Source: Candidatus Wolfebacteria bacterium
Lineage (GTDB): Bacteria > Patescibacteriota > Minisyncoccia > UBA6257 > UBA9933
Assembly: GCA_016933365.1 (NCBI GenBank)
Contig: JAFGBB010000032.1
Span: 1 to 36,343, forward strand
DNA: 36,343 nucleotides
Reading direction: 5' to 3'
Part shown: positions 47 to 36,343 of the stretch, one piece after another
Layout of the letters: each line of letters starts with the position of its first letter
How positions within the stretch are numbered: position 1 is the first letter of the stretch
Notes under the pieces: generated by a model
What the model was told of the DNA's origin: nothing
Databases searched by the model: none
Seen by the model: only the letters and a program-made list of their open reading frames with translations
Position numbers and translations under genes: made by a program

Positions 47-709
47 ATGAAAATAAAAGATCTTCCAAAAGTTGATAGGCCGCGAGAAAAACTGGAAAAA
101 TACGGACCCGAAAAATTATCTGACTCGGAGCTTTTGGCCATTCTTTTAAGAACTGGTAGTAAAGGCATAAATGTAGTTGAGTTGGCCAGAAAGATTTTAG
201 GTAAGTTCAGTGGAAGCGGCTTGGCCAAGGCCGGCTTTAATGATTTAAAGAATACTTTTGGCCTTGGTGCGGCTAAGGCCTGTGAGATTGTAGCTTGTTT
301 TGAATTAGGCCGCCGGCTTCTGCAAAATAAGAAAAGTCAGATTTATCTAACTCCCAAGGATGTTTGGAATGAATTAAAGGATATTCGGGACAATAAAAAG
401 GAACATTTCGTCATTTTCTTTTTAGATGCGCGTAATCAGGAAATAAAAAGAGAGATTATTTCAGTTGGCTCCCTCAATGCCAATCTGGTTCATCCACGAG
501 AAGTATTTGAGCCAGCCGTACGCCATTTGGCCGCACAAGTAATTCTGGCGCATAATCATCCAGCCGGGGACTTGAAGCCATCTGAACAGGATATCGAAAT
601 CACTAAACGGCTTGTTGAGGCCGGCGATGTTTTAGGAATAGATATTGTGGATCATATCATTGTGACTCAAAATAGATTTTTAAGTTTTAAGCAAAAGAAA
701 TTAATATAA
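47..709 (+). CDS. radC: RadC-family JAB/MPN (JAMM) domain protein, copy 1
   Basis: 220-aa ORF. N-terminal LSDSELLAILLRTG segment and C-terminal JAMM signature HNHPAGDLKPSEQD (starts nt 551) are typical of RadC/YeeS. The stop lies 5 nt before the next ATG. Confidence 0.85.
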   Translation: MKIKDLPKVDRPREKLEKYGPEKLSDSELLAILLRTGSKGINVVELARKILGKFSGSGLAKAGFNDLKNTFGLGAAKACEIVACFELGRRLLQNKKSQIYLTPKDVWNELKDIRDNKKEHFVIFFLDARNQEIKREIISVGSLNANLVHPREVFEPAVRHLAAQVILAHNHPAGDLKPSEQDIEITKRLVEAGDVLGIDIVDHIIVTQNRFLSFKQKKLI

Positions 710-714
710 TTTTT

Positions 715-2463: not shown

Positions 2464-4646
2464 TTATACTAAGAGATTATCAAAAAGAGGCAGTAGACGA
2501 ACTCAAAGAAAGAACAAATAAATTATTAGACAAACCAAACAATCCGATTTGTATTTTTAAGGCGCCTACTGGTTCGGGCAAGACTATAATGATGGCAGAG
2601 TTTTTGAAGGAATTTATTGAACATCGGGACGATCATCGTTCTTTTGCTTTTATTTGGGCGGCCCCCAGAAAATTACACATTCAAAGCAAAGAAAAACTGG
2701 AGCAGTATTATTCTGACAGCAAAGCACTTCGCTGTTCTTTTTTTGAAGATTTAATGGATAAGAAAATCAGCGAGAGCGAGATTTTATTTTTAAACTGGGA
2801 GAGCATTAATAAGAAAGACAATCTCATTATTCGTGAAAATGAGCAAGAGAATAATTTATCTAAAATTCTTGAAAACACTCGGGAAGACGGACAGGAAATT
2901 ATTTTAATTATTGATGAAAGTCATCATGCGGCGCAGACCGACACTTCACAAAATCTTATTCGGGACATTGACCCCAGAGTAACCATTGAAGTTTCAGCTA
3001 CTCCTCATTTGAGTAGTGATTATAGAGTATTGGTTGAATTTTCTGATGTTAAGCGAGAGGGGATGATTAAAAAAGAGGTAGCAATAAACCCAGAATTTCA
3101 AAACATTAAAGTTAGTGGTAAAAGTGCCGATGAAGTTGTGCTGGATGCCGCCATCGGTAAAAGAAAAGAATTAGTCAAAGCATATAAAGATGAAGGTTCA
3201 GAAATTAATCCCTTGGTCCTTATTCAATTGCCGGATAAAAGAGTCGGTTCTTCGGATAAGAAAGATGAGATTATCGCTTTACTCAAAAAGAAAGGCATTG
3301 CGGTCAATAATGGCAAACTGGCAATTTATCTGTCAGAGGATAAGGAAAATTTGGCCAATATTGCTAAAAGCAACAATGACGCAGAAGTAATGATTTTTAA
3401 ACAAGCGATTGCACTTGGCTGGGATTGTCCTCGGGCCTCCATTTTAGTTTTATTCCGTGATTGGCGAAGTATCATTTTTTCAATTCAAACCATCGGCAGA
3501 ATCATGAGGATGCCGGAATTAAAGCATTACGAGGATCATCAAGAATTGAATCTTGGTTATGTTTATACCAACTTAAGTGATATTAGCATCCATGAAGATT
3601 TGGCCAAAGATTACATCACGATATTTGAGTCTAAGCGCCGGCCGGATTATAAGCCGATAAACTTGGCTTCTTGTCACTCAAAGCGTTTTCGTGAAGAAAC
3701 CCGTTTGGCATCATTTTTTATTCCTATTTTTCTCGATGCCGCCAAAGAATTGCGTTTAAAAGACAAAATTAATTTTAAGGTAAAAACAAGTGTCAGCGAG
3801 CTTATCGCCGAGGGTAAAATAGAAGAATTAGACCATGTTGTCGAGCACATAGAAAAAGCTGGCACGATAGCGATTGACCAGACGGCACTTGAACGACAAA
3901 ACGCTTTCAGTTCATTCATTGCCGAGGCACTCTCGCCCTTATATCCCGAGCCTCGTTCTGTGGGCCGGATTAGAGATTCTATTTACCGCTTCTTTTTAGC
4001 GGCTTTCAAGATGAATTACGAAGACGAGCAGGAGAAAATAATGAACATTGTTTTAAATAAACAAAACAGAGAATTTTTTAGAAATGTAATTGATCGGGCT
4101 AAAGAGTTATATCTTGAGAAAGTTGGCCGGGGTAAAAAGGAATTAATCACTGATGAAGAATGGGATATTCCGATAAGACTTAATTATAATAGTTTTTTTG
4201 AAGAGAAGAAATACAAAAACTCAATCATGCAACCTTTCTTCTACGATACCCGGGAGAGTCGGCGCTGGAAGACGGAAGAAGATTTTATTAAACATCTTGA
4301 AAAAGCTGGCGGCATTGATTGGTGGTTCAAAAATGGAGATCGCGATGCTACCTATTTTGCCGTGTCCTATACCGAAGCTGGCATAGATATGCCCTTCTAT
4401 GTTGACTTCATTGTGAAAATGAAAGACGGCCGGATTGGCTTGTTTGATACTAAGTCGGGCATCACCGCTAAAGTCGCCGGGCCTAAGGCCGAGGGCTTAG
4501 CTAAATACATCAAAGAGCAGAATAGGAAGGGTAGGAAACTATTTGGCGGTATTGCGACTCAAAAAGACAGCAATTGGCTTTATAATGACAGCGAGAAATA
4601 CGATGAAACCGATCCAAAACAATGGCAAATTTTGGATTTAGATTAA
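2460..4646 (+). CDS. res: Type III restriction enzyme Res subunit (SF2 helicase plus C-terminal PD-(D/E)xK)
   Basis: 728 aa. Helicase motif I KAPTGSGKT (2559-2585), motif II IIDESHH (2913-2924) and motif VI-like QTIGRIMR. C-terminal FYVDFIVK...GLFDTKSG reads as a D...DxK nuclease motif. Translationally coupled to mod. Confidence 0.75.
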   Translation: MIILRDYQKEAVDELKERTNKLLDKPNNPICIFKAPTGSGKTIMMAEFLKEFIEHRDDHRSFAFIWAAPRKLHIQSKEKLEQYYSDSKALRCSFFEDLMDKKISESEILFLNWESINKKDNLIIRENEQENNLSKILENTREDGQEIILIIDESHHAAQTDTSQNLIRDIDPRVTIEVSATPHLSSDYRVLVEFSDVKREGMIKKEVAINPEFQNIKVSGKSADEVVLDAAIGKRKELVKAYKDEGSEINPLVLIQLPDKRVGSSDKKDEIIALLKKKGIAVNNGKLAIYLSEDKENLANIAKSNNDAEVMIFKQAIALGWDCPRASILVLFRDWRSIIFSIQTIGRIMRMPELKHYEDHQELNLGYVYTNLSDISIHEDLAKDYITIFESKRRPDYKPINLASCHSKRFREETRLASFFIPIFLDAAKELRLKDKINFKVKTSVSELIAEGKIEELDHVVEHIEKAGTIAIDQTALERQNAFSSFIAEALSPLYPEPRSVGRIRDSIYRFFLAAFKMNYEDEQEKIMNIVLNKQNREFFRNVIDRAKELYLEKVGRGKKELITDEEWDIPIRLNYNSFFEEKKYKNSIMQPFFYDTRESRRWKTEEDFIKHLEKAGGIDWWFKNGDRDATYFAVSYTEAGIDMPFYVDFIVKMKDGRIGLFDTKSGITAKVAGPKAEGLAKYIKEQNRKGRKLFGGIATQKDSNWLYNDSEKYDETDPKQWQILDLD

Positions 4647-4656
4647 ATAAATTTTC

Positions 4657-7600
4657 ATGACGAAATCTAAAAATAATAGAGTAAACGAATTGGTCGAAAT
4701 CAACTTCGACCAATTTAGGATAAAGAACCCAAATTTCAGAGAGTCTTTTGAACAACTTTGTTATTATTTATTTTGTAGAAGGTTCAAGATAACAAAAGGA
4801 ATACTCCGTCATAAAAATCAGATTGGCATAGAAACAGAACCAGTTAAGGTTGATAAGCAATATATTGGATTCGAGTGTAAATTTTTTGAGAATAAGATTG
4901 ATACGAATGAATTAGTTAAAAAAATCAAAAAAGCAAAAGAGAAAAACCCCAAAATTACTAAGATTATCTTCTATCTAAATCAAGATTTTTTATCAGAAAG
5001 CCAAAAGAAGGGGCAGAAAAAATCAACTAAAATGTTAGAGATCGAAAAGGTAGCGAGCGAACAGAAAGTTGAGATTGAATGGGTTGTAAAAAGTCATTTC
5101 GAAATTTTACTTAACCAACCGTCAAACCTAGATTTGGCGGAGTTGTTTTTTGATGTCGGCGATGAGTTGGGTTTTATTAAAAACTATGCAAATCCAGATA
5201 TTCTTACTTTCCTTCAGTCAAAAGAATATATTAATTTGCCACTTCTTCATCAGGGGAAATCCTTAAGGTTTCCATCAGCCAGCATCTTAAAAAGTTTAAA
5301 GACAACTTTTTTAATTACGGGATGCCCGGGCTCTGGAAAGACTATCTTGATGCACAAATTGTTTCAAGAATTTGGCGGGCTAAACAAAAATAAAAATGAA
5401 CAGATGATTCGGGTTCTTCAAAAAAATTCAGCCGTGCCAATGTTGGTGAATTTAAAGAATTGTATCAGTGATAGTTTAGAAAATATTTTAAGAAATAGAC
5501 AAAACGATAGCAGGGTAAGAGGGCGAACACTAGGCTTTGTTTATATTTTTGACGGTTTAGACGAATTAAGCGAAGAGAAGGCCGATAATATGCTTGCATA
5601 TATGCGAGAACTTGAACAGCAGGATAATACAAAGAGGATTATTATTTCGTGCCGATCTGGCAACTTAAACAGGATTAAATTAAAAGTCTATCTGCCAAAT
5701 ATTATTGAATATGCAATAGCTGATCTCGAGATAAAACATATTAATCAGTATTTTGATGCAAAGGAAAATACATTAAAAAAGAAATTGCTATTAAGGCTCC
5801 AGAAAAATAACCAAGAACTTTTAAGTGAAATAAAAGATATACTTATGACGCGGTTGCTTTGGGATACCATAGTCAACTTGGATTCGCAAAGTGGCATTAT
5901 AGATTTACTGGAGAAGAAAATAGAGCTTTTATTGAATGATCCAAATCATAAGAAAAATATCGCAGAGTTGAACCTATTGAATCCTAAGGGTGAAAATTTA
6001 ATCACATTAAATCAAGATATTGCCTTTGAATTTCAGAAAAAATTCCAATTCAGATACTCGCAGAAGGAATTATACAACATTATTTTGGCTAAATTTCCAC
6101 GCCTTGATTATAGATCGGCGAATGAGCTTTTAAACTATCTTGCCGATCTATTTTTTGAATCTGAGTATACCCCAACCGAACGAAATCGCAGTTTCGTTTA
6201 TCAACATCGCAGATATCAAGAATTTTTCTTTGTTCAGAAATTAAAATCAAAGTATGAAAACAATCCAAAATCTCTGAGAGAATTAAATGTTTTATCGAAT
6301 CGAGATTTTCTTGAGAAATTATTTTTACGATATATGCGTAAACAATATGGGTTAGCGAGAAATTTAATTGGGATGATTGAAATGAATTTAATAGATGTAT
6401 ATTTAGGAAAACATAGCGGATACGGAGTGGATGACGCTTATTATTTAAACTCCGCTGCATTTATACCCTCGCTTGCAAGCCAAGAGAACCAATTATTCAT
6501 CCAGTTATTTGAGGATAATAATCTGGCGCTATCAGAAAAGATTAAAGTTGATTTAAAAGTAGTCAGAGATTATTTTGCGAAGTGGAAAAAAGATAAAGAT
6601 AATTTTAGAACTACCAATTATTTAAAAAGCATTTGGGAAAATGGTATAGCCTCTTTACTAACTAATGCCGCAGTCTTTTGGAGGGCCGGGAAGAAAAATT
6701 TGGCCATCCACCTTCTTAATGATATGAGCTCTTTGCAAAAGTTATATTCCAATAATAAGTTTCGCAAAGGTCTTCGCAAAGAGGATCATTTAAGAGATCC
6801 TTTTTGGGAAAGATGGGAAGATTATTTATATATTCTTATAGTTATCGATAACAAGACTCCAAAGAAAATTTTGGATAATCTTGTTAGGAAAAATTACAAA
6901 ATATTTTCAAGTGATCGCCCCTTCTCGTCTCAAGAAGAAGGTAAAGAAAAGTTGTTAAAATCGTTCTTCAGAGTTTGTCTGCGTGATAAAGCGAACGCTT
7001 TATTTAGGCTTATCGATACTTTTGACGAATTTGAATTCTCATCTTTTTTAGATGTTTTACTATCTATTGAATTCTTGCCGGCATTCATCAAGAATAAATC
7101 AATACACAAAAAAATTGCTTCCTTTTTACAGGATTTACATTCAGATTTAAATGAGAAAAACTATTTTATGACTTTTTATAAAAATTATTTTGGCATCAAA
7201 TTATCTAAAAAAGAAAGAAAATATTTAGAAACCGAACTTTCAAAATTAAGAAATGAAAGGAAGGTCGATTGGCATTTTCATCAAGCACCATTCAAATTTG
7301 CTATCATTTCTTATGTTTTAGCCAAAAACACTTTTGATGAATTGTTAAAGGATGCATCTGAGAACTCACCGTTTCGATATTATGACGAGTTAGCTTTATA
7401 TTCGGCTTTGTTCGCAGATTTTATAAGCTTGCTTTCTGAGAAAAAGAATATTGAGACAATAACAAGGGACTATCTTGCTTATGTAAATATTCATGATCAA
7501 CGATTGGGATTATATTTAAAAGTAGATATTTCTTTTTTGTGGGCCTATATTTTAACATATAGCAAAACAACTAATGATCGATTAAGAAATATCAAAAATC

Positions 7601-8928
7601 GCCTTATGATTACCGATAATAATATTGTTCCTTTTAGTTTTTGTTTAAAATTAAATCAATTAAATCCGTTGTTGCTTTGTTCTCTGTATAATGAAAATGA
7701 GATATCAGAATTTGAGAGTGTGCTGAAAGACATCGATGATTATTATGAATACATTAATGATTGTTTTTATCTATCCTCGTTTTTTTCTAAATTAAACAAG
7801 GAAAAGGCACGATTTTATTTCGTAAAGGGTATAAATGATGGCATATTGCGGCATGGCTACAGAAAAGATGTTATTGTGAGTTATTTACTCGTTGATGCTT
7901 TAGAGATCCTGTGGCGTAATAATTGGGAATCAAAAGAAAAACTCAAAGAATACACAAAGGCGGTATTTAATTTAGCGATGCGTGTAACTAAAATTAGCGA
8001 CGGGGCGGAAACATGGAGGGGCCCCTATAATGTGATTGATTTGATCGCAAAATACGATATTACCTTGGCGGAAGAATACAAAAAAGAACTAATTGCCGCA
8101 AAGGGTCATTCAAATTTCTCGAATTCGGTTATAACCTCTATCTTAATCGGGAAAGCCGAGAATGGTTTTCCGATCGAGGACATTGAAAGTGGAATGCAAA
8201 AGTATAGAAAAGATTACGATTACGAAAATAAGCCGTATACTGATACATACGAGCAAAAATTCAAAGTCTATTTGGGAATAGCTAAAAGTGGTTTATATAC
8301 CGAACAGCAAAAAAAAGAGGCATTTCAAAAAGCCTTCGATCAGGTTGAAGAAATGAAGAAAGCCGGAGTTACTTATTATCTGAGAGATATGGATTTTAAA
8401 GAGGAAAAAAATGACTTTAAAAAACTATGTAAGCAATACAATAAAACTTGCAATGTCTCTTTTGATGAGAAAAAAGAAGAATATCATATAAAAAGCAAAA
8501 TGTCAGAAAAAGATTTTATTAACAATGTGAGGAAAGCGAAAACAAAGCCAGCGATAAGGGGGTTATACGCCAGATTAAAAAATTATAAAAATGGGATTGA
8601 ATTAAAAAAACAAGAATCTTGGAAAATATTGATTAAAAAAACAGCCGAAATCACTGGTAATATAAAATTATTTGTAGATTTAATTCGGGATAATAGTTTC
8701 CCGCATACTGATTTTATGACACAAAATTCTAAGCATTTCCATTTTGGAGTTGCGGCCGCACTTGAAGATATTGGCATTAAAAACGAAATTCTTAATTATC
8801 TTTTTAAGAATACGGGGCATGGCGGTTTTATCAATATAATGAAGTCCTATGAAGTTAATGAAGATAAGGAAATGTGCAGAAAGTTATTCAGGAGATATCT
8901 TTTGTTTTGCGATTTATTGGTTAACTAA
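4657..8928 (+). CDS. STAND/NACHT-type P-loop NTPase with N-terminal Mrr-like PD-(D/E)xK domain and a long helical C-terminal region (Avs/bNACHT-like)
   Basis: 1423 aa. N-terminal FEQLCYYLF...QIGIETEP...IGFECKFF (E59/E61, E73-x-K75) resembles Mrr-cat nucleases. Walker A ITGCPGSGKT (5320-5343). Walker B/NACHT-like FVYIFDGLDEL (D299, D302, E303). More than 1000 aa of helical sequence follow with no motif I recognise. Starts 10 nt after the res stop. Confidence 0.7.
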   Translation: MTKSKNNRVNELVEINFDQFRIKNPNFRESFEQLCYYLFCRRFKITKGILRHKNQIGIETEPVKVDKQYIGFECKFFENKIDTNELVKKIKKAKEKNPKITKIIFYLNQDFLSESQKKGQKKSTKMLEIEKVASEQKVEIEWVVKSHFEILLNQPSNLDLAELFFDVGDELGFIKNYANPDILTFLQSKEYINLPLLHQGKSLRFPSASILKSLKTTFLITGCPGSGKTILMHKLFQEFGGLNKNKNEQMIRVLQKNSAVPMLVNLKNCISDSLENILRNRQNDSRVRGRTLGFVYIFDGLDELSEEKADNMLAYMRELEQQDNTKRIIISCRSGNLNRIKLKVYLPNIIEYAIADLEIKHINQYFDAKENTLKKKLLLRLQKNNQELLSEIKDILMTRLLWDTIVNLDSQSGIIDLLEKKIELLLNDPNHKKNIAELNLLNPKGENLITLNQDIAFEFQKKFQFRYSQKELYNIILAKFPRLDYRSANELLNYLADLFFESEYTPTERNRSFVYQHRRYQEFFFVQKLKSKYENNPKSLRELNVLSNRDFLEKLFLRYMRKQYGLARNLIGMIEMNLIDVYLGKHSGYGVDDAYYLNSAAFIPSLASQENQLFIQLFEDNNLALSEKIKVDLKVVRDYFAKWKKDKDNFRTTNYLKSIWENGIASLLTNAAVFWRAGKKNLAIHLLNDMSSLQKLYSNNKFRKGLRKEDHLRDPFWERWEDYLYILIVIDNKTPKKILDNLVRKNYKIFSSDRPFSSQEEGKEKLLKSFFRVCLRDKANALFRLIDTFDEFEFSSFLDVLLSIEFLPAFIKNKSIHKKIASFLQDLHSDLNEKNYFMTFYKNYFGIKLSKKERKYLETELSKLRNERKVDWHFHQAPFKFAIISYVLAKNTFDELLKDASENSPFRYYDELALYSALFADFISLLSEKKNIETITRDYLAYVNIHDQRLGLYLKVDISFLWAYILTYSKTTNDRLRNIKNRLMITDNNIVPFSFCLKLNQLNPLLLCSLYNENEISEFESVLKDIDDYYEYINDCFYLSSFFSKLNKEKARFYFVKGINDGILRHGYRKDVIVSYLLVDALEILWRNNWESKEKLKEYTKAVFNLAMRVTKISDGAETWRGPYNVIDLIAKYDITLAEEYKKELIAAKGHSNFSNSVITSILIGKAENGFPIEDIESGMQKYRKDYDYENKPYTDTYEQKFKVYLGIAKSGLYTEQQKKEAFQKAFDQVEEMKKAGVTYYLRDMDFKEEKNDFKKLCKQYNKTCNVSFDEKKEEYHIKSKMSEKDFINNVRKAKTKPAIRGLYARLKNYKNGIELKKQESWKILIKKTAEITGNIKLFVDLIRDNSFPHTDFMTQNSKHFHFGVAAALEDIGIKNEILNYLFKNTGHGGFINIMKSYEVNEDKEMCRKLFRRYLLFCDLLVN

Positions 8929-17920: not shown

Positions 17921-17929
17921 TTTAATAAT

Positions 17930-18109
17930 ATGAGTAAATTTAAAATTGATAAATCAAAATGCGTTGGATGTGGAGCTTGTGTTAACACTTGTCTTTATGA
18001 AGCGATTGAAATTGGAAAAGATGATAAAGCAATTATAAATAAAGAAAAATGTAAAAATTGCGGTAAATGTAAAAAAATTTGTCCTTTTAACGCAATATTA
18101 GAAAAATAA
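17930..18109 (+). CDS. 2x[4Fe-4S] ferredoxin (59 aa, absent from the ORF track)
   Basis: MSKFKIDKSKCVGCGACVNTC...KEKCKNCGKCKKICP contains two CxxCxxCxxxC(P) motifs. Paralog of the ORF at 21893-22087. Confidence 0.75.
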   Translation: MSKFKIDKSKCVGCGACVNTCLYEAIEIGKDDKAIINKEKCKNCGKCKKICPFNAILEK

Positions 18110-21848: not shown

Positions 21849-21892
21849 GGGTAAAAAATATAAAATTAATTTGAATTTTAATCAATAAAAAT

Positions 21893-22087
21893 ATGAAAAA
21901 ATATGAAGTTGATAAATCAATATGCGCCGGTTGCGGAGCTTGTATAAACGCTTGTCCTTATGGCGCTATTAAAATTGGAAAAGATGGTAAGGCGGTTATA
22001 GATATGAATAAATGTCAACAATGCGGGGCTTGCGTAAAAATATGCCCTTTTAATAGCATTAAAGAGGTTGACGATGAAATAAATTAA
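21893..22087 (+). CDS. 2x[4Fe-4S] ferredoxin
   Basis: CAGCGACINACP and CQQCGACVKICP motifs, 64 aa. Confidence 0.8.
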   Translation: MKKYEVDKSICAGCGACINACPYGAIKIGKDGKAVIDMNKCQQCGACVKICPFNSIKEVDDEIN

Positions 22088-29702: not shown

Positions 29703-30365
29703 ATGAAAATAAAAGATTTTCCAAAAGTGGATAGACCTAGAGAAAAATTGGAAAAATACGGGCCGGAAAAATTATCTAATTCGGAACTTTTGGCAATTTT
29801 ATTAAGAACCGGAGGTAAGGGTGTTAATGTTGTTGAATTAGCTAAAAAGATTTTAGCTAAATTTAGCGGAGTTGGTTTGGCTAAAGCAAGTTTTAAGGAT
29901 TTAAAAAATACTTTTGGCTTGGGCGCGGCCAAGACTTGCGAAATTGTTGCTTGTTTTGAACTTGGTCGCCGGTTTTTAAAAAACAAGAAATCAATTTTAT
30001 TGCTTTCTCCACAAGATGTTTGGAATGAATTAAAAGATATTCGGGATAATAAAAAAGAACATTTTGTTATTTTCTTTTTAGACGCGCGTAATCAAGAAAT
30101 TAGGCGGGAAATTATTTCGGTTGGTTCGCTTAATGCCAATCTTGTTCATCCGCGCGAAGTTTTTGAGCCGGCAGTTGCCAGTTTGGCGGCGCAAATCATA
30201 ATAGCTCATAATCATCCATCTGGTAATCCAGAGGCGTCTGAAGAGGATTTAAAAATAACAAAAAGGTTGGTTGAAGCCGGTAAAATTCTTGGAATAGATG
30301 TTATCGACCACGTGGTAGTGTCTGAAGGGGAATATTTCAGTTTTAAAGAGAAAAAGTTAATATAA
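29703..30365 (+). CDS. radC: RadC-family JAB/MPN (JAMM) domain protein, copy 2
   Basis: 220 aa, collinear with copy 1. JAMM motif HNHPSGNPEASEED starts at nt 30207, the same codon position as in copy 1. The stop lies 4 nt before the next ATG. Confidence 0.85.
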   Translation: MKIKDFPKVDRPREKLEKYGPEKLSNSELLAILLRTGGKGVNVVELAKKILAKFSGVGLAKASFKDLKNTFGLGAAKTCEIVACFELGRRFLKNKKSILLLSPQDVWNELKDIRDNKKEHFVIFFLDARNQEIRREIISVGSLNANLVHPREVFEPAVASLAAQIIIAHNHPSGNPEASEEDLKITKRLVEAGKILGIDVIDHVVVSEGEYFSFKEKKLI

Positions 30366-30369
30366 AATT

Positions 30370-31080
30370 ATGGATATTTCACAGGATATTTTGAATAAAT
30401 TTTTTACGAGAGAAGATTATTTAGAGTGGATAAGGCAAGAGATGGCGATTTTTGCGTATTTAGACCTGACTAATATGTTCCACTGGCAAGATATTTTGGG
30501 TTGGAAATTTAGAGTAGAAGATGTTATTAAACAACTTTTTACTTTTCCAAATATTAAAGAAGTTAAGGTGTATTATGGATTAAATCCGCGGGACAGAAAA
30601 AATTCCGAAGCTTTTTTAAATCGTATAAAGAAAGCAGGGGCGAGTTTAAGGCCAAATCTGCCAAAGGAAATGAAATTTATTAGAAAAGATATTAATGAAG
30701 CCTTCTTTTTTCAGAGGAGAACGATGGATTTATTTGATGGTGGAACTAAAGAAAAAATTCATAAATTTATAGAAGAATTGGAAAAGTCGGGGATTATTAT
30801 TGAAGAGCCAAAATGTAATTTTGATGTTGAAATGACGATGGATATGCTGGATGACACGGAAAAATTGACCGCGGTGATGCTTTTTTCCGGGGATTCCGAT
30901 ATGCGCGCTCCATTAGAGCGTTTAAGGGTTAAGGGCAAGAAAATTGGTGTTGTTGGCGTAAGGGGAATAGTAGCGGGAGAATTACACACATTAGAAGATA
31001 AATATATTGATTTTGGCAAGTTTTATACGGGAAAAAGGACTTATAAAAGCGAAAATCCCGCCAGAGGCGGGACCGCGTGA
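30370..31080 (+). CDS. NYN/LabA-like (PIN-fold) ribonuclease-domain protein 1
   Basis: 236 aa. AIFAYLDLTNMF (first Asp), CNFDVEMTMDMLD, and MLFSGDSDMRAPLERLRVKGKKIGVVG (SGDSD at 30886-30900) follow the LabA/NYN acidic-residue pattern. Confidence 0.7.
   Translation: MDISQDILNKFFTREDYLEWIRQEMAIFAYLDLTNMFHWQDILGWKFRVEDVIKQLFTFPNIKEVKVYYGLNPRDRKNSEAFLNRIKKAGASLRPNLPKEMKFIRKDINEAFFFQRRTMDLFDGGTKEKIHKFIEELEKSGIIIEEPKCNFDVEMTMDMLDDTEKLTAVMLFSGDSDMRAPLERLRVKGKKIGVVGVRGIVAGELHTLEDKYIDFGKFYTGKRTYKSENPARGGTA
31057..31071 (+). other. GC-rich hairpin inside the last codons of NYN gene 1
   Basis: cccgcc-aga-ggcggg: a 6-bp all-G/C stem in an otherwise AT-rich context, 7 nt before the TGA stop. Confidence 0.6.
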
Positions 31081-31148
31081 TTAGTAGAATTACTCCTACA
31101 AAATCAATATAACAAACAAACGGCTCAATCGTCAATCCCAATCTGGGG

Positions 31149-31190
31149 ATAACTCGATTTCATTGAATTTGGGCCTCAAGAGGCGAAAAT
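31149..31190 (+). repeat. Junction repeat, copy A (left flank of the TA cassette)
   Basis: ataactcgatttcattgaatttgggcctcaagaggcgaaaat. By my hand alignment it matches 31803-31845 at 34 of 43 positions. Confidence 0.6.
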
Positions 31191-31256: not shown

Positions 31257-31601
31257 ATGTCTATTTCCGAGGCGAGGAAAAGAATTTTTGAAATCGCCAA
31301 AGAGGTTCAAAAACCGGGTAATTTTTATACCTTGACTGAAAAAGGCCGTCAAAAAGCCGTGATTATGTCTGCCGAGGAATTTGAATCTTGGGCGGAAACT
31401 TTGGAAGTGATGAAGGAATTTCCTAATTTAAAAAAAGAAATAAAAGAAACCAATAAAGCTATTAAAAGCGGGGAATACAAAAAATGGACAACTCTTGAGG
31501 AAATTTTAGCGAAAGAAGGATTTGTCTTTGCCGATAAGTCCTCAAAAAAATATGGAGTATCAGCTAAGGTTAAAACCAAGAGCCGAAAAAGAGTTAAATA
31601 G
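31257..31601 (+). CDS. Phd/YefM-family type II antitoxin
   Basis: MSISEARKRIFEIAKEV...AVIMSAEEFESWAETLEVM is the classic Phd/YefM N-terminal domain. The start is ATG 31257 or 31233. The track start at 31197 is the promoter -35 and is rejected. The 3' end overlaps the toxin gene by 50 nt. Confidence 0.75.
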   Translation: MSISEARKRIFEIAKEVQKPGNFYTLTEKGRQKAVIMSAEEFESWAETLEVMKEFPNLKKEIKETNKAIKSGEYKKWTTLEEILAKEGFVFADKSSKKYGVSAKVKTKSRKRVK

Positions 31602-31806
31602 TCTTTCGCGAAAAGATTATTATAAAATTCTAACGGTTTTAACGGGATTGGCAAAAAACCCCTTTTCCGGGAAAAAACTGGAAGGGGAATATAGGGGTTA
31701 TTATTCAACTCGCGCCTGGCCGTACAGAATCATTTATCAGGCGTTTAAAAAGGAACTTATCGTTCTTATTATTTATATTGGCCACAGACAAGGAGTTTAT
31801 AAATAA
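31552..31806 (+). CDS. RelE/ParE-family type II toxin
   Basis: MEYQLRLKPRAEKELNSL...LAKNPFSGKKLEGEYRGYYSTRAWPYRIIYQ...IGHRQGVY matches the RelE/ParE consensus. I prefer ATG 31552 over the track start at 31522. Confidence 0.8.
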   Translation: MEYQLRLKPRAEKELNSLSRKDYYKILTVLTGLAKNPFSGKKLEGEYRGYYSTRAWPYRIIYQAFKKELIVLIIYIGHRQGVYK

Positions 31807-31845
31807 CTCAGTTTTATTGAATTTAGGTCCAAAAAGGCGTAAAAT
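31803..31845 (+). repeat. Junction repeat, copy B (right flank of the TA cassette)
   Basis: ataactcagttttattgaatttaggtccaaaaaggcgtaaaat. It begins inside the relE stop codon and sits 20 nt upstream of the methylase ATG. Confidence 0.6.
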
Positions 31846-31865: not shown

Positions 31866-33938
31866 ATGAAAAATATCTCAAATATTATCAAAGATTCAAA
31901 TTACGGTTTTTCGATTTTTGATCAGAAGTTAGTTGAAGAATTAGAAGATAAAATTACTATTAAAGACGGCAAGCCATATATTGTTTGTATTATTCGTAAT
32001 AAAGAAATTATTTTAAAGCCCGAAGAAGTTGTTCGTCAACTTTATGCGATGAAATTAATTAAAGAATATGGCTATTCAAAACAGAGGATTAAGTTTGAAC
32101 ACGCAATTCATTTTGGTCGCGAGGTAAAATCTGCCGATATTGTTATTTTTGATAAAGATCGGCCGATGGTTGAGTATATTATAATTGAAATTAAGAAACC
32201 AAAACTTCAAGACGGAAAAAATCAGCTTCGTTCTTATACTAATGCTACCGGCGCGCCGATTGCTGTTTGGACTAATGGCGGACAGATTTCGCATTATAAT
32301 CGCAAAGATCCAAACTATTTTGAGGATATTACTGATATTCCTAAATCTGATCAAACACTCGAAGATATTTTAAAAGAAAGGTTTACCCTTAAAGATTTAA
32401 TTATTAAAGATAAAATACCAAACGAAGGAAAATCACTTAAAACTATTATTCAGGAAATGGAAGATGAGGTTTTGGCAAACGCTGGAGTGGATGTTTTTGA
32501 AGAAGTTTTTAAACTTATTTTTACAAAATTATATGATGAACGTAAAAGCGCTAAAGATAAGGAAATTATTAATTATTTTTTGAATCAAAAAGATTTCCCG
32601 ATGGTTATTGCGGATAAACCGTACGTTAAATATGGCGAAAGCAAAGAAAAATCATATGATGAATTAAAAGAGATTATCAGTGAGATTGACGATAGTAAAT
32701 TCAGAGTGCTTGAATTTAGAAATACCGGACAATCTGAAAGCGAGCTAAAAAAGAAAATCCAAAAACTTTTTGACGAAGCCAAAGTCAAATGGCCGGGCGT
32801 TTTTGACGAAACTAGCCAAATTCAGCTTTCGCCCTCCCATCTTTCAATTAGTGTTTCTAGCTTGCAAGACATTAAACTATTCAATTCCAATCTACAAATT
32901 ATTGATGAAGCATTTGAGTATTTGGTCAATAAATCATCAAAAGGAGAAAAAGGCCAATATTTCACGCCTCGTCACGTGATTGATATGTGCGTTAAAATGC
33001 TTAATCCTAAAGCGGGTGAATATATGGTAGATACCGCCGCCGGCTCTTGCGGATTTACAGTGCACACAATTTTTCAAATCACAGGACACTTATTTCAAAA
33101 TACTGATATTTCCGAAGAAGAAAAAGAAAATGTGCTTAAAGTTTTTGGTATAGATTTTGACGAAAAAGTCGTGCGCGTAGCTCGCACTTTAAACTTAATC
33201 GCCGGAGACGGAAATACCAATGTTTTACACTTGAACAACTTGGATTATGAACGTTGGAATGAATCAATCCAAAATCGCGATTGGTTAGAAGTGTATGGAG
33301 CAGGTTTAAAAAGACTTGAAGCTTTGCAAAAAGATAAAAGTTCTTACAAAGAATTTAATTTTGATATTCTTATGGCGAATCCGCCGTTTGCTGGAGATAT
33401 TAAGGAATCTCGCATAATTCATAAATATGATCTTGGTTACAACGACAAAAATAAACCAAAGTCAAAAGTCGGCCGCGATATTTTATTTATTGAAAGAAAC
33501 TTAAACTTTTTGAAGCCAGGCGGAAGAATGGCGATTGTGTTGCCGCAAGGCCGTTTTAACAATACATCGGACAAAAATATTCGCGAGTATATTTCTGAAA
33601 AAGCCAGAATTTTGGCAGTAGTCGGGCTGAATGTAAACACTTTCAAACCACACACGGGAACCAAAACCAGCGTGCTTTTTGTACAAAAATGGGACGATAA
33701 ACTTTGTCCGAAAGTTGAAGATTATCCGATTTTCTTTACTGTGTCCGAGAAACCCGGCAAGGATAATTCCGGCGAGTATGTTTTCTTGAAAAACGGCGGC
33801 GGTCAGTCGAAATTGGATAAAAATGGACACTTTATAATTAATCACGACTTACACAATCAAGACGGCGAATTGCCCGACGGCGTGGCGGAAAAGTTTATTG
33901 AATGGGCAAAAAAAGAGAAATTAAGTTTTTGGAAATAA
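31866..33938 (+). CDS. hsdM: N6-adenine DNA methyltransferase, HsdM-like (gamma class), with N-terminal HSDR_N-type domain
   Basis: 690 aa. N-terminal PEEVVRQLY...SADIVIFD...IIIEIKKP is HSDR_N-like. GQYFTPRHV, motif I VDTAAGSCGF (33027-33056) and motif IV MANPPFAG (NPPF 33378-33389). Confidence 0.8.
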   Translation: MKNISNIIKDSNYGFSIFDQKLVEELEDKITIKDGKPYIVCIIRNKEIILKPEEVVRQLYAMKLIKEYGYSKQRIKFEHAIHFGREVKSADIVIFDKDRPMVEYIIIEIKKPKLQDGKNQLRSYTNATGAPIAVWTNGGQISHYNRKDPNYFEDITDIPKSDQTLEDILKERFTLKDLIIKDKIPNEGKSLKTIIQEMEDEVLANAGVDVFEEVFKLIFTKLYDERKSAKDKEIINYFLNQKDFPMVIADKPYVKYGESKEKSYDELKEIISEIDDSKFRVLEFRNTGQSESELKKKIQKLFDEAKVKWPGVFDETSQIQLSPSHLSISVSSLQDIKLFNSNLQIIDEAFEYLVNKSSKGEKGQYFTPRHVIDMCVKMLNPKAGEYMVDTAAGSCGFTVHTIFQITGHLFQNTDISEEEKENVLKVFGIDFDEKVVRVARTLNLIAGDGNTNVLHLNNLDYERWNESIQNRDWLEVYGAGLKRLEALQKDKSSYKEFNFDILMANPPFAGDIKESRIIHKYDLGYNDKNKPKSKVGRDILFIERNLNFLKPGGRMAIVLPQGRFNNTSDKNIREYISEKARILAVVGLNVNTFKPHTGTKTSVLFVQKWDDKLCPKVEDYPIFFTVSEKPGKDNSGEYVFLKNGGGQSKLDKNGHFIINHDLHNQDGELPDGVAEKFIEWAKKEKLSFWK
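33861..33938 (+). repeat. 78-bp direct repeat, copy 1 (the 3' end of the methylase gene)
   Basis: gacggCgaattgcccgacggcgtggcggaaaag...tttttggaaataa, identical to 34656-34733 except for one base (position 6). Confidence 0.9.
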
Positions 33939-33939
33939 T

Positions 33940-34545
33940 ATGTTAAACAAAAACACAACTTTCATTTTTATAGATGCTTCAAATTTATGGGAAGCTCAGA
34001 AGGCTAAAGGTAAACTCTTTGATTTTGAAAAACTAAAAAAATTTCTTAAAGAAAAGTTTGATGCCACAGCTATAGAGTTTTTCTATTATTCCGCTTATCC
34101 AGCCGAAGGAACCAGGGATTACAGCACAGACGACAAGCATAAATTCTTCACTTTTCTTAAAAAGGGACTCGGATTTATTGTGCGTAAAAAAGAATTAAAA
34201 AGAATTAATGTTATTACAGAAGTCGGTCAATCAGTTGAAGAAAAGGGTAATATGGATGTGGAGATTACCATTGACTCTCTGCATCATATAAAAAAATATG
34301 ACACGGCCGTTTTTTTCTCGGGCGATTCTGATTTTTTGGCGTTAGTCGCTTATTTGCGTCGAAGAGGAAAGAAAGTTTTTATCTTTTCTTCTGAAAACAA
34401 TATTTCCAGAGAATTGCGAACCGGCGCCAACGGTTATTTTGACATATTAAAAATTGAGAATAATGTCTGGGGGAAAGACTTAAAACACCGAACAGATAAG
34501 TCCACCCGAAAACAAAGCAGCCCTCCGCAAGGAGGACTGCCCTAG
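33940..34545 (+). CDS. NYN/LabA-like (PIN-fold) ribonuclease-domain protein 2
   Basis: 201 aa. FIFIDASNLW, KGNMDVEITIDSL, and AVFFSGDSDFLALVAYLRRRGKKVFIFS (SGDSD at 34318-34332). The ATG lies 1 nt after the methylase stop. Confidence 0.75.
   Translation: MLNKNTTFIFIDASNLWEAQKAKGKLFDFEKLKKFLKEKFDATAIEFFYYSAYPAEGTRDYSTDDKHKFFTFLKKGLGFIVRKKELKRINVITEVGQSVEEKGNMDVEITIDSLHHIKKYDTAVFFSGDSDFLALVAYLRRRGKKVFIFSSENNISRELRTGANGYFDILKIENNVWGKDLKHRTDKSTRKQSSPPQGGLP
34517..34540 (+). other. GC-rich hairpin with GNRA loop inside the last codons of NYN gene 2
   Basis: gcag-cc-ctcc-GCAA-ggag-ga-ctgc, ending 2 nt before the TAG stop. Confidence 0.55.
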
Positions 34546-34556
34546 GATGTAATACC

Positions 34557-34580
34557 CTTTCAGTTATGGATAACCGAAAG
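34557..34580 (+). other. Hairpin in the NYN2 3' flank
   Basis: ctttcagttat-gg-ataaccgaaag: 11-bp arms with one mismatch. Confidence 0.5.
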
Positions 34581-34610
34581 ACATTATTAATGTAGCAAAA
34601 TCATAAACCT

Positions 34611-34733
34611 ATGTCAATAACGATATTAACAATTCTTGATAAATTAAATAACCATGACGGAGAATTGCCCGACGGCGTGGCGGAAAAGTTTATTGAATGG
34701 GCAAAAAAAGAGAAATTAAGTTTTTGGAAATAA
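34611..34733 (+). pseudogene. Remnant of a second HsdM-like C-terminus (open as a 40-codon ORF)
   Basis: MSITILTILDKLNNHDGELPDGVAEKFIEWAKKEKLSFWK. The last 26 residues are identical to the methylase C-terminus, and ILDKLNNHD resembles KLDKNGHFIINHDLHNQD of the full-length gene. Confidence 0.6.
34656..34733 (+). repeat. 78-bp direct repeat, copy 2
   Basis: 77/78 identical to 33861-33938. It is followed 4 nt later by the ATG at 34738. Confidence 0.9.
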
Positions 34734-34737
34734 AGTT

Positions 34738-36222
34738 ATGACCACAGACGATAAAGTATATTTTTCAGACATATTCGGCGTTAAACATACAGTGATTGAA
34801 AAGTATGGTGCTTTGGATATTTCTCTCGTTTGTGATAATCCCGCTTTTGTTGACCCATTTCTTATTTTTGCAAACTCAAAGTATAAAAATTTACATGACT
34901 TTATTATTGATTATCTTAAATTTTTAAAAGATTTATCGTTCAAAGAAGAAAAATTAAGTTCCGGAAACTTTAAACACTATTATAAATTCCCCGAAGTAAA
35001 ACAAGCGTGGTTAGGGTATTCAGTTGGTGGTAATGTGGGTTTAGGATTAGGAAAAGATTTTGCTGAATCACTTTACAAAAATTTACATAAAATATTTTCG
35101 CAGTTTGGTAACGAGAAAATTACTGAGTCTTCTCATCTTGAAAAATTATGCTTAGTTGAAGAAGGTGTAGGAGTAGACAAGATAAGCGATTTCACAATAA
35201 ATTTAGTTAAAAGATACTTACTAGATTACACACAAACATTTGCAAAAAAATATATTAACCAAAAATATCTAGCAAAATTTTCCATACGAAAAGTAAATTT
35301 TGATTTTAAAAAAGGTATTTGGACCGATGAACAATTTATATTGCCAAAGCTCGAAAGAAAAAACAAAAAGGAGTTTGTGCTATTGATACCGCAAGAGATA
35401 TTAACAAAAGAAGATACATGGATTTCAAAAAATGACTTCTTGAACAATGACACGGCTATTTTTAATACAATCGCAAATGATGAATTAAGAACAAAAATCA
35501 ATAAATTCTTTTTTGACAATTTAGCCGTAAAGCTAAATAAGAAAAAACAGTCGGAAAAAGATTATTCCAAAAAAAGCAAAAAAAATGCCTTAGTCAAAAC
35601 AGTCTGGGAATTTCCAGAGGTTCTGGATTATTACATAAAATATAAAGAGCTAAACAAAGATAATGCTCTAAAATATCACATTGCTGAACCGGAGTTTATA
35701 AATTTCTTTTCTGATGCTAGTGCTTTAAAAAATGAACTTAAAAAAGAGAAGTTTGATAAATTAACTTCTTTTGATGACTGCATTTCCAGAATTTTATTTT
35801 TTAAACAAAAACTTGAATCAAATAGTAATGATTTATATTTCAAAGACAAATCACTACAAGAAAAACATCTACGCTTGATGTTTAAAAATGTAACTTACGG
35901 AGCCTTATTTGACTATAATTCAGAAGTTAATAACGGGAGGGGACCAATTGATTTTCTTGTGTCTTATGGAAGCCAAGATAAAATTGGCTTAGAGTTAAAA
36001 CTAGCCTCTAACCCTAAACTAAAACACAATCTATTAAACCAAGGGGAAATTTGTCAAGAAGATAGTAATTTAAAGCATGTAATCAAAATAATATTCTATT
36101 TCTCAGATCAAGAATTGAGTAGGATAAATGATATTTTGAGAGAAATAAACAAATCGATTGACAATAAAGAAATTTTTGCCATTGATTGCCGAAAAAAAGT
36201 ATCCGCTTCTAATCAAAAATAA
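34738..36222 (+). CDS. Uncharacterised 494-aa protein with a C-terminal PD-(D/E)xK-like nuclease motif
   Basis: C-terminal GRGPIDFLVSYGSQDKIGLELKLAS (D405 at 35950, E419-x-K421 at 35992-36000) fits the PD...ExK pattern. The N-terminal ~380 aa contain no motif I can name. Confidence 0.5.
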   Translation: MTTDDKVYFSDIFGVKHTVIEKYGALDISLVCDNPAFVDPFLIFANSKYKNLHDFIIDYLKFLKDLSFKEEKLSSGNFKHYYKFPEVKQAWLGYSVGGNVGLGLGKDFAESLYKNLHKIFSQFGNEKITESSHLEKLCLVEEGVGVDKISDFTINLVKRYLLDYTQTFAKKYINQKYLAKFSIRKVNFDFKKGIWTDEQFILPKLERKNKKEFVLLIPQEILTKEDTWISKNDFLNNDTAIFNTIANDELRTKINKFFFDNLAVKLNKKKQSEKDYSKKSKKNALVKTVWEFPEVLDYYIKYKELNKDNALKYHIAEPEFINFFSDASALKNELKKEKFDKLTSFDDCISRILFFKQKLESNSNDLYFKDKSLQEKHLRLMFKNVTYGALFDYNSEVNNGRGPIDFLVSYGSQDKIGLELKLASNPKLKHNLLNQGEICQEDSNLKHVIKIIFYFSDQELSRINDILREINKSIDNKEIFAIDCRKKVSASNQK

Positions 36223-36224
36223 TT

Positions 36225-36343
36225 ATGCAATATTCAGTTGTAAAATTTAATGAGGTAAAAGATGTATTCAGATTTGACGCTGAATATTTTCACCCTACCG
36301 CTTTAAAATATGAAAACATCATCAGCTTACATAATGGAAAAAC
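36225..36343 (+). CDS. hsdS: Type I R-M specificity subunit (HsdS)-like, 5' partial
   Basis: MQYSVVKFNEVKDVFRFDAEYFHPTALKYENII. The FRFDAEYF(H/Q)P opening is typical of HsdS target-recognition domains. It starts 2 nt after the previous stop and runs off the window. Confidence 0.55.
   Translation, partial: MQYSVVKFNEVKDVFRFDAEYFHPTALKYENIISLHNGK

Follow-up and report, generated by a model that had tools for sequence, protein, structure and literature searches.

An NYN nuclease cassette with an antisense RNA gene behind hsdM in a Wolfebacteria genome: most likely an arrival by recombination, with a duplicated gene tail as its scar

We analyzed a stretch of Candidatus Wolfebacteria DNA, contig JAFGBB010000032.1, at its full length of 36,343 nucleotides (nt), hereafter called the window. 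Directly behind hsdM, the methyltransferase gene of a restriction-modification operon, the window carries a cassette of about 0.7 kb with two genes, one for the NYN-family nuclease NYN2 and one for a convergent small RNA, and beyond this cassette the last 78 nt of hsdM occur a second time. The cassette most likely arrived by recombination and not by the action of a transposase, and the 78-base repeat is most likely its scar. The explanation that we favor, at somewhat better than even confidence, is that the NYN-RNA module was captured in an operon of methyltransferase and specificity genes (an M-S operon) by recombination that is homologous on one side only (insertion-duplication), and that NYN2 is a toxin-like protein under the control of the RNA. 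The sequences show the repeat itself, the empty site, the signals and covariation of the RNA gene, its strict linkage to NYN, and flanking repeats that recur at other loci; the recombination route, the expression of the RNA, and the toxicity and its neutralization are what we infer from them. The full gene order is hsdM, NYN2 with the small-RNA gene, the hsdM-tail relic, a gene for a 494-amino-acid (aa) DUF8370/DUF8371 protein, and hsdS. Related loci are given below by L numbers, and X1 and X2 are sequencing runs.

The duplicated hsdM tail

The features that define the insertion are as follows.

33861..33938, plus strand: repeat copy 1, the last 25 codons and TAA stop of the 690-aa hsdM open reading frame (ORF), with weak homology back to 33849
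33940..34545, plus strand: NYN2, a 201-aa LabA-like NYN (PIN-like) nuclease (Pfam NYN)
34633..34643, plus strand: filler between the end of the cassette homology (34594-34632) and the start of the repeat alignment (34644)
34656..34733, plus strand: repeat copy 2 (the hsdM-tail relic), 77/78 identical, with weak homology from 34644, directly before the 494-aa gene

A first-pass annotation of the window had already pointed to the two copies of the tail, and both a reading of the sequence and a repeat finder return them at 77 of 78 positions, with a start-to-start spacing of 795 nt. The sole mismatch, C33866 versus A34661, is synonymous (GGC/GGA). The annotated junction spacings are likewise correct: copy 1 is separated by 1 nt from the NYN2 ATG (33940) and copy 2 by 4 nt (AGTT) from the ATG of the 494-aa gene (34738). 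When the 150 nt before the NYN2 ATG were aligned locally with the 660 nt that start 60 nt before the NYN2 stop, the score was 77.5, or about 56 standard deviations above the mean of 30 shuffles of the upstream segment. In 400 mismatched locus pairs, taken as a null, such flanking-repeat scores averaged 10.4 and never exceeded 22. The repeat is far above chance level.

The reading frame before copy 2 is indeed open, in an ORF that starts from an ATG at 34611 and reads MSITILTILDKLNNHDGELPDG... into the copy. The claim that homology continues upstream of the exact repeat at lower identity is weakly supported: the 12 nt directly upstream match at 8 of 12 positions (P about 0.01, a hand estimate for A+T-rich sequence), but the further 'ILDK' match requires a 27-nt gap, and the extension beyond the exact repeat is weak. 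The filler at 34633..34643 is a candidate for an illegitimate joint. The 40-codon relic ORF, which had been thought unlikely to be expressed, has its ATG in the -35 box of the small-RNA promoter. Relics elsewhere vary in length, two of them carrying 1-nt deletions, and we reject this ORF as a gene.

Empty sites and the hsdM-hsdS gap

The view that NYN2 is an inserted cassette is borne out by relatives that have the same 494-aa gene and no NYN, in the order hsdM, 3 nt, 494-aa gene. These NYN-less forms are the loci of the closest homologues of the 494-aa protein, L176-L179 (88% identical), where hsdS follows the 494-aa gene, and L180 (92% identical), which ends just past that gene. The relic-AGTT-ATG junction of the window corresponds to the hsdM-NNN-ATG junction of L176-L180. 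A scan for hsdM, with one genome per species, yielded 80 hsdM relatives at 65-94% aa identity. In these relatives a gene for the conserved HsdS protein of about 470 aa either follows hsdM directly or is separated from it by one to three variable genes, with cargo that includes an AAA_15 ATPase, Fic, RhuM/Fic, DUF1016/YhcG, and SLFN_AlbA_2+HATPase_c_4. Neither NYN2 nor the 494-aa gene occurs in any of the 80. As a component of the favored explanation, and sharing its slight lean toward yes, the hsdM-hsdS gap would be a landing pad for accessory genes of defense or toxin-like function.

The host operon consists of the following genes.

31866..33938, plus strand: hsdM-type N6-adenine DNA methyltransferase, 690 aa, the host gene of the landing site
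34738..36222, plus strand: 494-aa DUF8370/DUF8371 protein (precomputed PF28130/PF28123)
36225..36343, plus strand: start of hsdS, which runs off the window and encodes MQYSVVKFNEVKDVFRFDAEYFHP...

The 690-aa methyltransferase matches Pfam N6_Mtase (3e-34) and PADLOC MTase_I (945 bits), and it carries an N-terminal HSDR_N_2 domain (2e-26) in place of a separate hsdR. Since neither the window nor the flanks of the 80 hsdM relatives, searched over about 5 kb, contain an HsdR of the L081 type, the system is called a type-I-like M-S pair. The assignment of hsdS comes from the N-terminus encoded by the last 119 bases of the window, which matches the partner protein (HsdS) of the hsdM relatives (cluster 0); the gene at the hsdS position of L176 matches Methylase_S weakly. 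In the window, hsdM and hsdS thus lie on the same strand with extra genes between them, and full hsdS genes are present in the empty-site relatives. Exact-protein look-ups of hsdM and NYN2 gave no match. The hsdM relatives span Patescibacteria, Poribacteria, Nitrospirota, the archaeon Methanoperedens, and others, and this level of identity across very distant phyla implies that the M-S pair has probably been transferred horizontally often.

The position given earlier for the 494-aa ORF holds, but the annotation had missed that this gene is embedded cargo in its own right, with hsdS coming next. The protein matches PADLOC PDC-M36A (1e-15) and has no match in the copy of Pfam that was used, DUF8370 and DUF8371 being newer families. 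The 494-aa gene is itself embedded cargo, older in the operon than NYN2. DUF8370/71 genes also occur in L172-L175, which are unrelated restriction-modification operons, either between a BsaWI-type endonuclease and an N4/N6 methylase or after an EcoRI-type methylase, and there they begin only 3-5 nt past the preceding stop codon.

The NYN2 nuclease and its antisense RNA gene

NYN2 matches the family profile PF01936 with E = 1.6e-23 and 84 bits against a cut-off of 24, and PDB entry 2qip at 1e-5. Residues D12, N15, D106, E108, D112, D129, S130, and D131 are invariant in 33 family members, among them NYN1, a second NYN protein of the window, and they include the conserved acidic active-site residues (D12, D106, E108, D112, D129, and D131). 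The PIN-like active site appears intact, and nuclease activity is predicted. There are 2253 homologues of NYN2, with 64-82% identity among the 120 matches listed; the nearest (82% aa identity) sits in a different operon of the order hsdR-NYN-hsdM. NYN2 also weakly matches HEC-09 and the PADLOC NYN model. Its gene has no promoter of its own and begins 1 nt past the hsdM stop (TAA-T-ATG).

The first-pass annotation recognized NYN2 as the content of the cassette and overlooked a conserved antisense small-RNA gene in the supposedly noncoding part, with these features.

34509..34617, minus strand: small-RNA gene, convergent with NYN2 (promoter scan, fold, covariation, and covariance model)
34617-34612 and 34594-34589, minus strand: -35 box TTGACA and -10 box TACATT of its promoter (TTGACA-N17-TACATT)
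about 34582 to the U-tract at 34516-34509, minus strand: predicted RNA of about 74 nt, from a putative start
34580-34557, minus strand: hairpin 1, followed by the conserved single strand GGGUAUUACAUCC
34540-34517 and 34516-34509, minus strand: stem and U-tract of an intrinsic terminator

The final ~35 nt of the NYN2 ORF lie opposite the predicted RNA, whose fold has a z score of -2.4. X2 contigs gave the first hint of the element: at high depth they match the window at about 34514-34589, and outside this segment they are unrelated to it. The motif GGATGTAATACCCTT lies at about +600 past NYN in all NYN2-relative loci but one, which is truncated by the end of its contig. On the minus strand, 67 distinct NYN2-family loci can be aligned, and all carry the element in the order TTGACA-N17-TATACT promoter, 10-bp hairpin, invariant GGGUAUUACAUCC, G+C-rich hairpin of 10-12 bp, and U-tract. 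RNAalifold and pair counting give 24 pairs, 13 of them compensatory, with 98.1% of cells paired. Column shuffling did not produce such values in any of 500 trials, and in slid controls pairing dropped to 43-64%. The element is assigned to the minus strand because G-U wobble cells number 240 when read from that strand versus 5 from the plus strand. For a plus-strand structure or an attC-like site, pairing would be 83.5%, and we reject that reading of the hairpins. The NYN ORFs of relatives stop at varying points within or before the element, so protein coding does not account for its conservation.

With a covariance model made from this alignment, the window copy is recovered at 34503-34625 on the minus strand (114 bits, E = 8e-23), and there is no other convincing match in the 880 kb searched, which comprise hsdM and 494-aa loci without NYN2. 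Against Rfam 15, the window has no match at the gathering score and no credible family at the E-value threshold, the best subthreshold match being 23S-methyl (17.9 bits versus 50, E = 6.2); no tRNA was found either. The promoter, terminator, covariation, and strand asymmetry argue that the element is a gene, which would be expressed from its own signals. The linkage of NYN and RNA is strict, with the RNA beside every NYN2-family member examined.

Several further observations concern the RNA family. In X2, a groundwater metagenome, several contigs contain the small-RNA element only, at depths up to 46-90 and with differing flanks, and the family is abundant there. In 33 of 62 NYN2-family loci (L081-L171), a DnaA-box-like site, TTATCCACA with at most one mismatch, is found past the -35 box at a distance of 2-22 nt, 17 times in one orientation and 16 times in the other, against 0 occurrences in 31 kb of controls; the window copy has no such TTATCCACA site. 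In the terminator tetraloop (alignment A1; window 34527-34530), UCGC/UUGC alternates with its reverse complement GCGA/GCAA, as if flipped.

The second NYN protein, NYN1 (236 aa), encoded in the region 30370-31135, shares 34% identity with NYN2 in a local alignment of 116 residues. It sits 4 nt after RadC and has the same design as NYN2, its 3' end being overlapped by a minus-strand promoter (31135-31106), preceded by a TTATCCCCAG box, and by a terminator (31074-31054). The same design is retained around a 78%-identical NYN1 homologue in L130, where the first hairpin shows compensatory changes.

Cassette extent and flanking repeats at other loci

NYN cassettes from different contexts resemble one another in DNA sequence between about the ATG and about +680 to +745, just beyond the RNA promoter, and in the window this similarity spans 33909/33940 to 34594-34632. 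To the right, between the RNA promoter and the downstream repeat, the filler is variable. The upstream neighbors of NYN cassettes include N6_N4_Mtase (6/50), N6_Mtase (6/50), and RadC (4/50), and the downstream ones ResIII (7/47), Mrr_cat_2 (3/47) with Mrr_cat (2/47), and Methylase_S (3/47). The NYN family is often nested in restriction-modification operons, and housekeeping genes are also among its neighbors. Some cassettes bring leftovers of an old flank: L098 has an hsdR-tail relic that resembles the L081 junction, and L149, L159, and L162 have hsdM-tail relics at sites other than hsdM.

Six other hsdM loci have a second hsdM tail past the first cargo.

L008: 76-nt tail relic, 88% identical, behind Fic
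L001: 50-nt tail relic behind RhuM/Fic
L007: 40-nt tail relic, including the next ATG, behind AlbA_2
L022: 39-nt tail relic behind DUF1016
L013: 37-nt tail relic behind DUF1016
L004: 32-nt tail relic in front of DUF3800

With Fic, DUF1016, and AlbA_2 cargo among these, we reject the idea that the repeat is specific to NYN. The flanks were long enough for a comparison in 58 NYN2-family loci. In 13 of them the flanking repeat scores above the 99th percentile of the mismatched pairs, against an expectation of 0.6, and we likewise reject the repeats as an obligatory footprint. The repeats of NYN cassettes are 17-137 nt long, and the repeated segment is each time local sequence.

L111, L094, L151, and L119: repeats of hsdM tails
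L169: 120-nt repeat of another gene's tail
L098: 137-nt repeat of the promoter and first 21 codons of an AbrB-like gene
L159: 26-nt repeat of the ligA start
L099: 27-nt repeat of a -10 box and ATG
L113: 54-nt repeat of a terminator

The first-pass annotation had proposed homology-driven shuffling at a conserved hsdM 3' end. The tail relics of the six additional loci agree with this proposal, and recombination at the hsdM 3' end is supported as a recurring route. The conserved tail is another matter. Across the family, the tail has a nucleotide identity of 0.73 and the gene overall 0.72, the same codon being used at 0.53 and 0.47, respectively, and we reject the tail as a peak of DNA conservation. 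Moreover, NYN cassettes away from hsdM also have local flanking repeats, so a conserved hsdM tail is not the whole explanation.

Origin of the cassette

The first-pass annotation held that so long a duplication is not of the transposase type and that the window has no recombinase gene, and both statements are supported. We find no transposase, integrase, or terminal inverted repeats, the cassette ends are ragged, and a Pfam scan of 28 window proteins found no recombinase. The features of an insertion sequence are missing, in that the only ORF of the cassette is NYN, no inverted repeats lie at its ends, and no fixed-length target duplication is seen. The same is true of an integron cassette, given that no integrase is present in the proteins scanned and no attC was seen, although no dedicated attC model was run. 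As to a vehicle for transfer, no NYN2 relatives were found in IMG/VR or phage records, plasmids give distant matches only (<40% identity over about half coverage), and no transfer vehicle was identified. The ragged ends, the variable repeat length, and the 78% of loci without repeats all argue against a dedicated transposase or site-specific recombinase.

Under the favored explanation, the ancestral arrangement would have been hsdM, the 494-aa DUF8370/71 gene, and hsdS. A segment comprising an hsdM' tail, NYN, and the RNA gene would have come from another genome, in linear or circularized form, and paired with the resident hsdM tail. Integration would then have used homology on the tail side only, with the other joint made illegitimately near 34633-34655, either as Campbell-type insertion-duplication of a circularized fragment or as homology-facilitated illegitimate recombination. 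The outcome would be an intact hsdM ending in copy 1, NYN2 coupled to hsdM translation, and the other tail copy left as a relic that keeps the original stop-spacer-ATG junction before the displaced 494-aa gene. Tail-flanked cassettes could afterward move among hsdM loci by ordinary homologous recombination, and this single route would also account for the tail relics behind non-NYN cargo. Once in place, NYN2 would be read from the operon transcript and the small RNA from its own strong promoter and terminator. NYN2 would act as an RNase-type toxin or abortive-infection effector, and the antisense RNA, complementary to the 3' end of the NYN2 mRNA, would restrain it in the manner of an RNA antitoxin. 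Such a design would follow the logic both of RNA-antitoxin systems and of the abortive-infection back-ups that sit inside restriction-modification operons.

The first-pass annotation had taken the relic to be that of a second hsdM allele. The relic plausibly does come from another allele, for its LNNHD resembles the HNHD of other alleles where the resident gene has HNQD. Synonymous and nonsynonymous differences between copies number 9:0 in L098, 6:6 in L169, 4:6 in L008, and 3:2 in the window (over 90 nt), with the frame kept. The pooled ratio of 22:14 compares with 80% nonsynonymous under neutrality (P = 7e-8) and, under a conservative null in which one copy is under selection and the relic decays, gives P = 5e-4, although the pooled bias is driven by L098. 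The bias shows that, at least in some loci, the copies have separate histories as functional coding sequence, recombination between lineages having put a breakpoint between the two. It is no proof of how the duplication first came about.

A number of results weigh against the favored explanation. The synonymous bias is not significant in the window alone (P = 0.14 under the conservative null), and the bias could also have come from later allelic exchange after an in-situ duplication. The copies are 77/78 identical, including 72 identical bases to the right of the mismatch at 34661, against an average of about 73% DNA identity for hsdM-tail codons in 29 family members. Such near-identity looks like a fresh in-situ duplication, and for a two-allele origin the donor tail would have to have been nearly identical, or gene conversion would have had to homogenize the copies afterward. 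Within the window's own hsdM subfamily, no hsdM-NYN junction that could have been the donor was found, and 45 of the 58 NYN cassettes have no flanking repeat. First insertions at nonhomologous sites with local repeats, as in L159 (ligA) and L098 (AbrB-like), are not explained by one-sided homology. On the functional side, three metatranscriptomes of the study behind X1 gave no signal over the region, and HEC-09, the NYN representative that has been tested, gave no phage defense (bioRxiv 10.1101/2024.01.29.577857).

Because those insertions at nonhomologous sites are unexplained, we keep long duplication in situ as the main rival. The module would then be an autonomous mobile element that moves perhaps by widely staggered NYN nicks and fill-in or by replicative template switching, with long target-site duplications of variable length, and the 78-nt repeat would be an in-situ target duplication. 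Near-perfect repeat pairs (77/78 in the window, 27/27 in L099, 48/49 in L168, and 52/54 in L113) speak for such an element, as do the repeats of local sequence at unrelated sites (the ligA start, the AbrB-like gene start, a terminator, and gene tails), the great abundance of the NYN family, often on short contigs, and module boundaries that recur across contexts from the ATG to just beyond the RNA promoter. Yet Fic, RhuM/Fic, DUF1016, and AlbA_2 cargo have tail repeats with no need of NYN, most NYN cassettes have no repeat, the ragged ends carry hitchhiking relics, and the copies in L098 differ by 9 synonymous and 0 nonsynonymous changes. To our knowledge, repeat lengths of 17-137 nt match no known transposition chemistry. 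Taken together, an autonomous element is rather unlikely, if the best placed of the alternatives.

A recombinase encoded elsewhere could instead use the hsdM tail as an attachment site, with the cassette bringing a replacement tail in the way that integrative elements do. The insertion lies exactly at a gene 3' end with the reading frame restored, the relics of the window and L008 start near the same codon (G-E-L-P), and the extreme tail ...AGTTTTTGGAAATAA is common to two hsdM subfamilies that are about 40% identical. These observations would suit an attachment site, but the window proteins scanned include no integrase, relic lengths vary between loci from 20 to 90 nt, the same cassette stands behind hsdR, N6_N4 methylases, RadC, and housekeeping genes, and the junctions have no conserved core site. 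Site-specific recombination of this kind is improbable.

The structure might also be an assembly artefact, in which two strains or loci were joined through the conserved hsdM tail into an arrangement present in no single genome. This was checked with Logan contigs (k = 31 unitigs) of run X1, of which 56% were read. In that run 97% of sampled words of 33400-35200 are present, and flank depths are equal, at 18.1 next to hsdM and 18.0 next to the 494-aa gene. With k = 31, unitigs should end at a repeat of this length, and they do; those of the repeat have depths of 35-80. The depth of these unitigs relative to the flanks, the exact tail stretches shared by other hsdM alleles of the sample, the alternative unitig continuations at 33856 and 33911, and the absence of the NYN interior from the contigs read speak for an artefact. 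Against it stand the equal flanks and the coverage of the region, a 78-nt repeat that should be shorter than ordinary reads, and like architectures in independent assemblies (L008, L001, L007, L098, L169, and others). In addition, the left edge of the relic joins NYN-cassette sequence and not the hsdM body, so at least the NYN-RNA-relic-494-aa junction is real DNA. An assembly chimera is unlikely, and the artefact as a full account has very little probability. Least probable of all is that NYN2 is an old native member of the operon and the second tail an unrelated local tandem duplication or slippage product: NYN does directly follow hsdM in many loci of a second hsdM subfamily, but it occurs in 0 of 80 relatives of the window's own subfamily and is missing from the closest loci with the same 494-aa gene, and the nearest NYN2 relative belongs to the different, hsdR-NYN-hsdM operon.

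Relation to known systems

The embedding of genes in defense operons is already known from type I restriction-modification, BREX, DISARM, and Hma systems, and the genes concerned include one for the NYN protein HEC-09 (Payne et al., bioRxiv 10.1101/2024.01.29.577857). Like the embedded accessory genes, PrrC in EcoprrI and the 'guilt-by-embedding' HEC/PDC candidates, NYN2 is a small nuclease gene on the same strand between hsdM and hsdS, and the adjoining 494-aa gene matches the embedded candidate PDC-M36A. Unlike the HEC/PDC genes, the window module has a conserved antisense RNA gene and a duplicated hsdM tail, and in a keyword search of the paper by Payne et al. (bioRxiv 10.1101/2024.01.29.577857) we found neither a partner RNA nor a route of embedding. 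Matelska et al. (PMC5499597) noted that some PIN-like nucleases linked to type I restriction-modification come with no visible antitoxin. An embedded accessory gene as such is already known; the antisense RNA that accompanies the nuclease gene and the duplicated tail as a footprint of embedding both appear to be undescribed.

Type I toxin-antitoxin systems with convergent, 3'-overlapping antisense RNAs include txpA/RatA and bsrG/SR4 of Bacillus subtilis. The module shares with them a short convergent RNA with a near-consensus promoter and intrinsic terminator, complementarity at the 3' ends, and strict co-inheritance. The two differ in the protein, which is a small membrane peptide there and here a 201-aa soluble protein of the NYN/PIN-like nuclease fold whose toxicity is predicted. 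The cis-encoded antisense overlap of type I systems is thus present in the predicted transcript, and the small hydrophobic peptide toxin is not. Nor does the module resemble a type III (ToxIN-like) system, the RNA being single-copy, on the opposite strand, and downstream rather than a set of upstream tandem repeats.

For the mode of spread, orphan modules of contact-dependent inhibition (CDI) and Rhs systems (PMC3482391) offer a parallel, for there also the module brings a piece of a conserved gene, recombines at that piece, and displaces the old end and cargo, leaving a truncated repeat of the conserved segment. In the window, however, it is a methyltransferase gene whose 3' end serves as the conserved piece, and the cargo genes stand alone instead of being fused toxin tips. 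Integron gene cassettes are comparable in that each comprises about one ORF without a promoter, that they are lined up behind a fixed point, and that their expression is driven from upstream, but they differ in that the NYN cassettes have no integrase or attC, the hairpins belong to an RNA with its own promoter, and the flanking repeats are host sequence. Insertion-duplication and homology-facilitated illegitimate recombination are reportedly the subject of work by de Vries and Wackernagel in 2002 and Prudhomme et al. in 2002 in naturally transformable bacteria. As in Campbell-type insertion-duplication, one-sided homology would suffice here, a homologous segment lies on both sides of the insert, and one joint would be illegitimate; the difference is that the event in the window is read from sequence footprints in uncultivated bacteria.

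Genes nested in restriction-modification operons now serve the discovery of new defense systems, and in the literature searched we found no description of how genes become embedded there. The window, its empty-site relatives, and more than 20 analogous loci provide a concrete footprint that can be searched for systematically, in which the end of the flanking gene is duplicated, the cassette has ragged ends, and the copies differ in the way that alleles do, and this footprint points to recombination with one-sided homology. For those PIN-like nucleases that are coupled to restriction-modification, the antisense RNA is a candidate 'missing antitoxin'. It lies beside every examined member of the NYN2 family, which exceeds 2000 proteins, and is not in Rfam. 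If the RNA controls the nuclease, the result would be a toxin-antitoxin-like design that pairs a large enzymatic toxin with a cis-antisense RNA in a bacterial group that has been little tested by experiment. A broader reading, which we offer only tentatively and would not yet bet on, is that the NYN2- and NYN1-type antisense-RNA modules form an undescribed class of RNA-controlled nuclease toxins or abortive-infection systems abundant in Patescibacteria. The control RNA would often follow the DnaA-box-like TTATCCACA, the modules would spread without promoters behind transcribed genes, especially restriction-modification methylases, by insertion-duplication, and duplicated gene tails would be a general, searchable footprint of embedding.

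Other repeats and clusters in the window

A Phd/YefM-ParE pair (about 31257-31806) lies between direct repeats of about 42 nt that are about 80% identical (31149-31190 and 31803-31845). The repeat holds a promoter-like TTGAAT-N17-(G/T)AAAAT, and its score of 23.5 modestly exceeds the shuffle maximum of 22.5. The pair may be another cassette, inserted with a duplicated expression signal. A direct repeat of 168 nt (76% identical) occurs at 17923-18090 and 21886-22053, 3963 nt apart; one copy precedes a SufC-like ABC ATPase gene, the other a cation-efflux gene. Finally, two RadC paralogues with 80% aa identity each head a defense cluster. The first (47-8928) comprises RadC, an N6_N4 methylase, a ResIII helicase, and a 1423-aa NACHT protein, and the second, whose RadC lies at 29703-30365, comprises RadC, NYN1, Phd/ParE, and the hsd operon.

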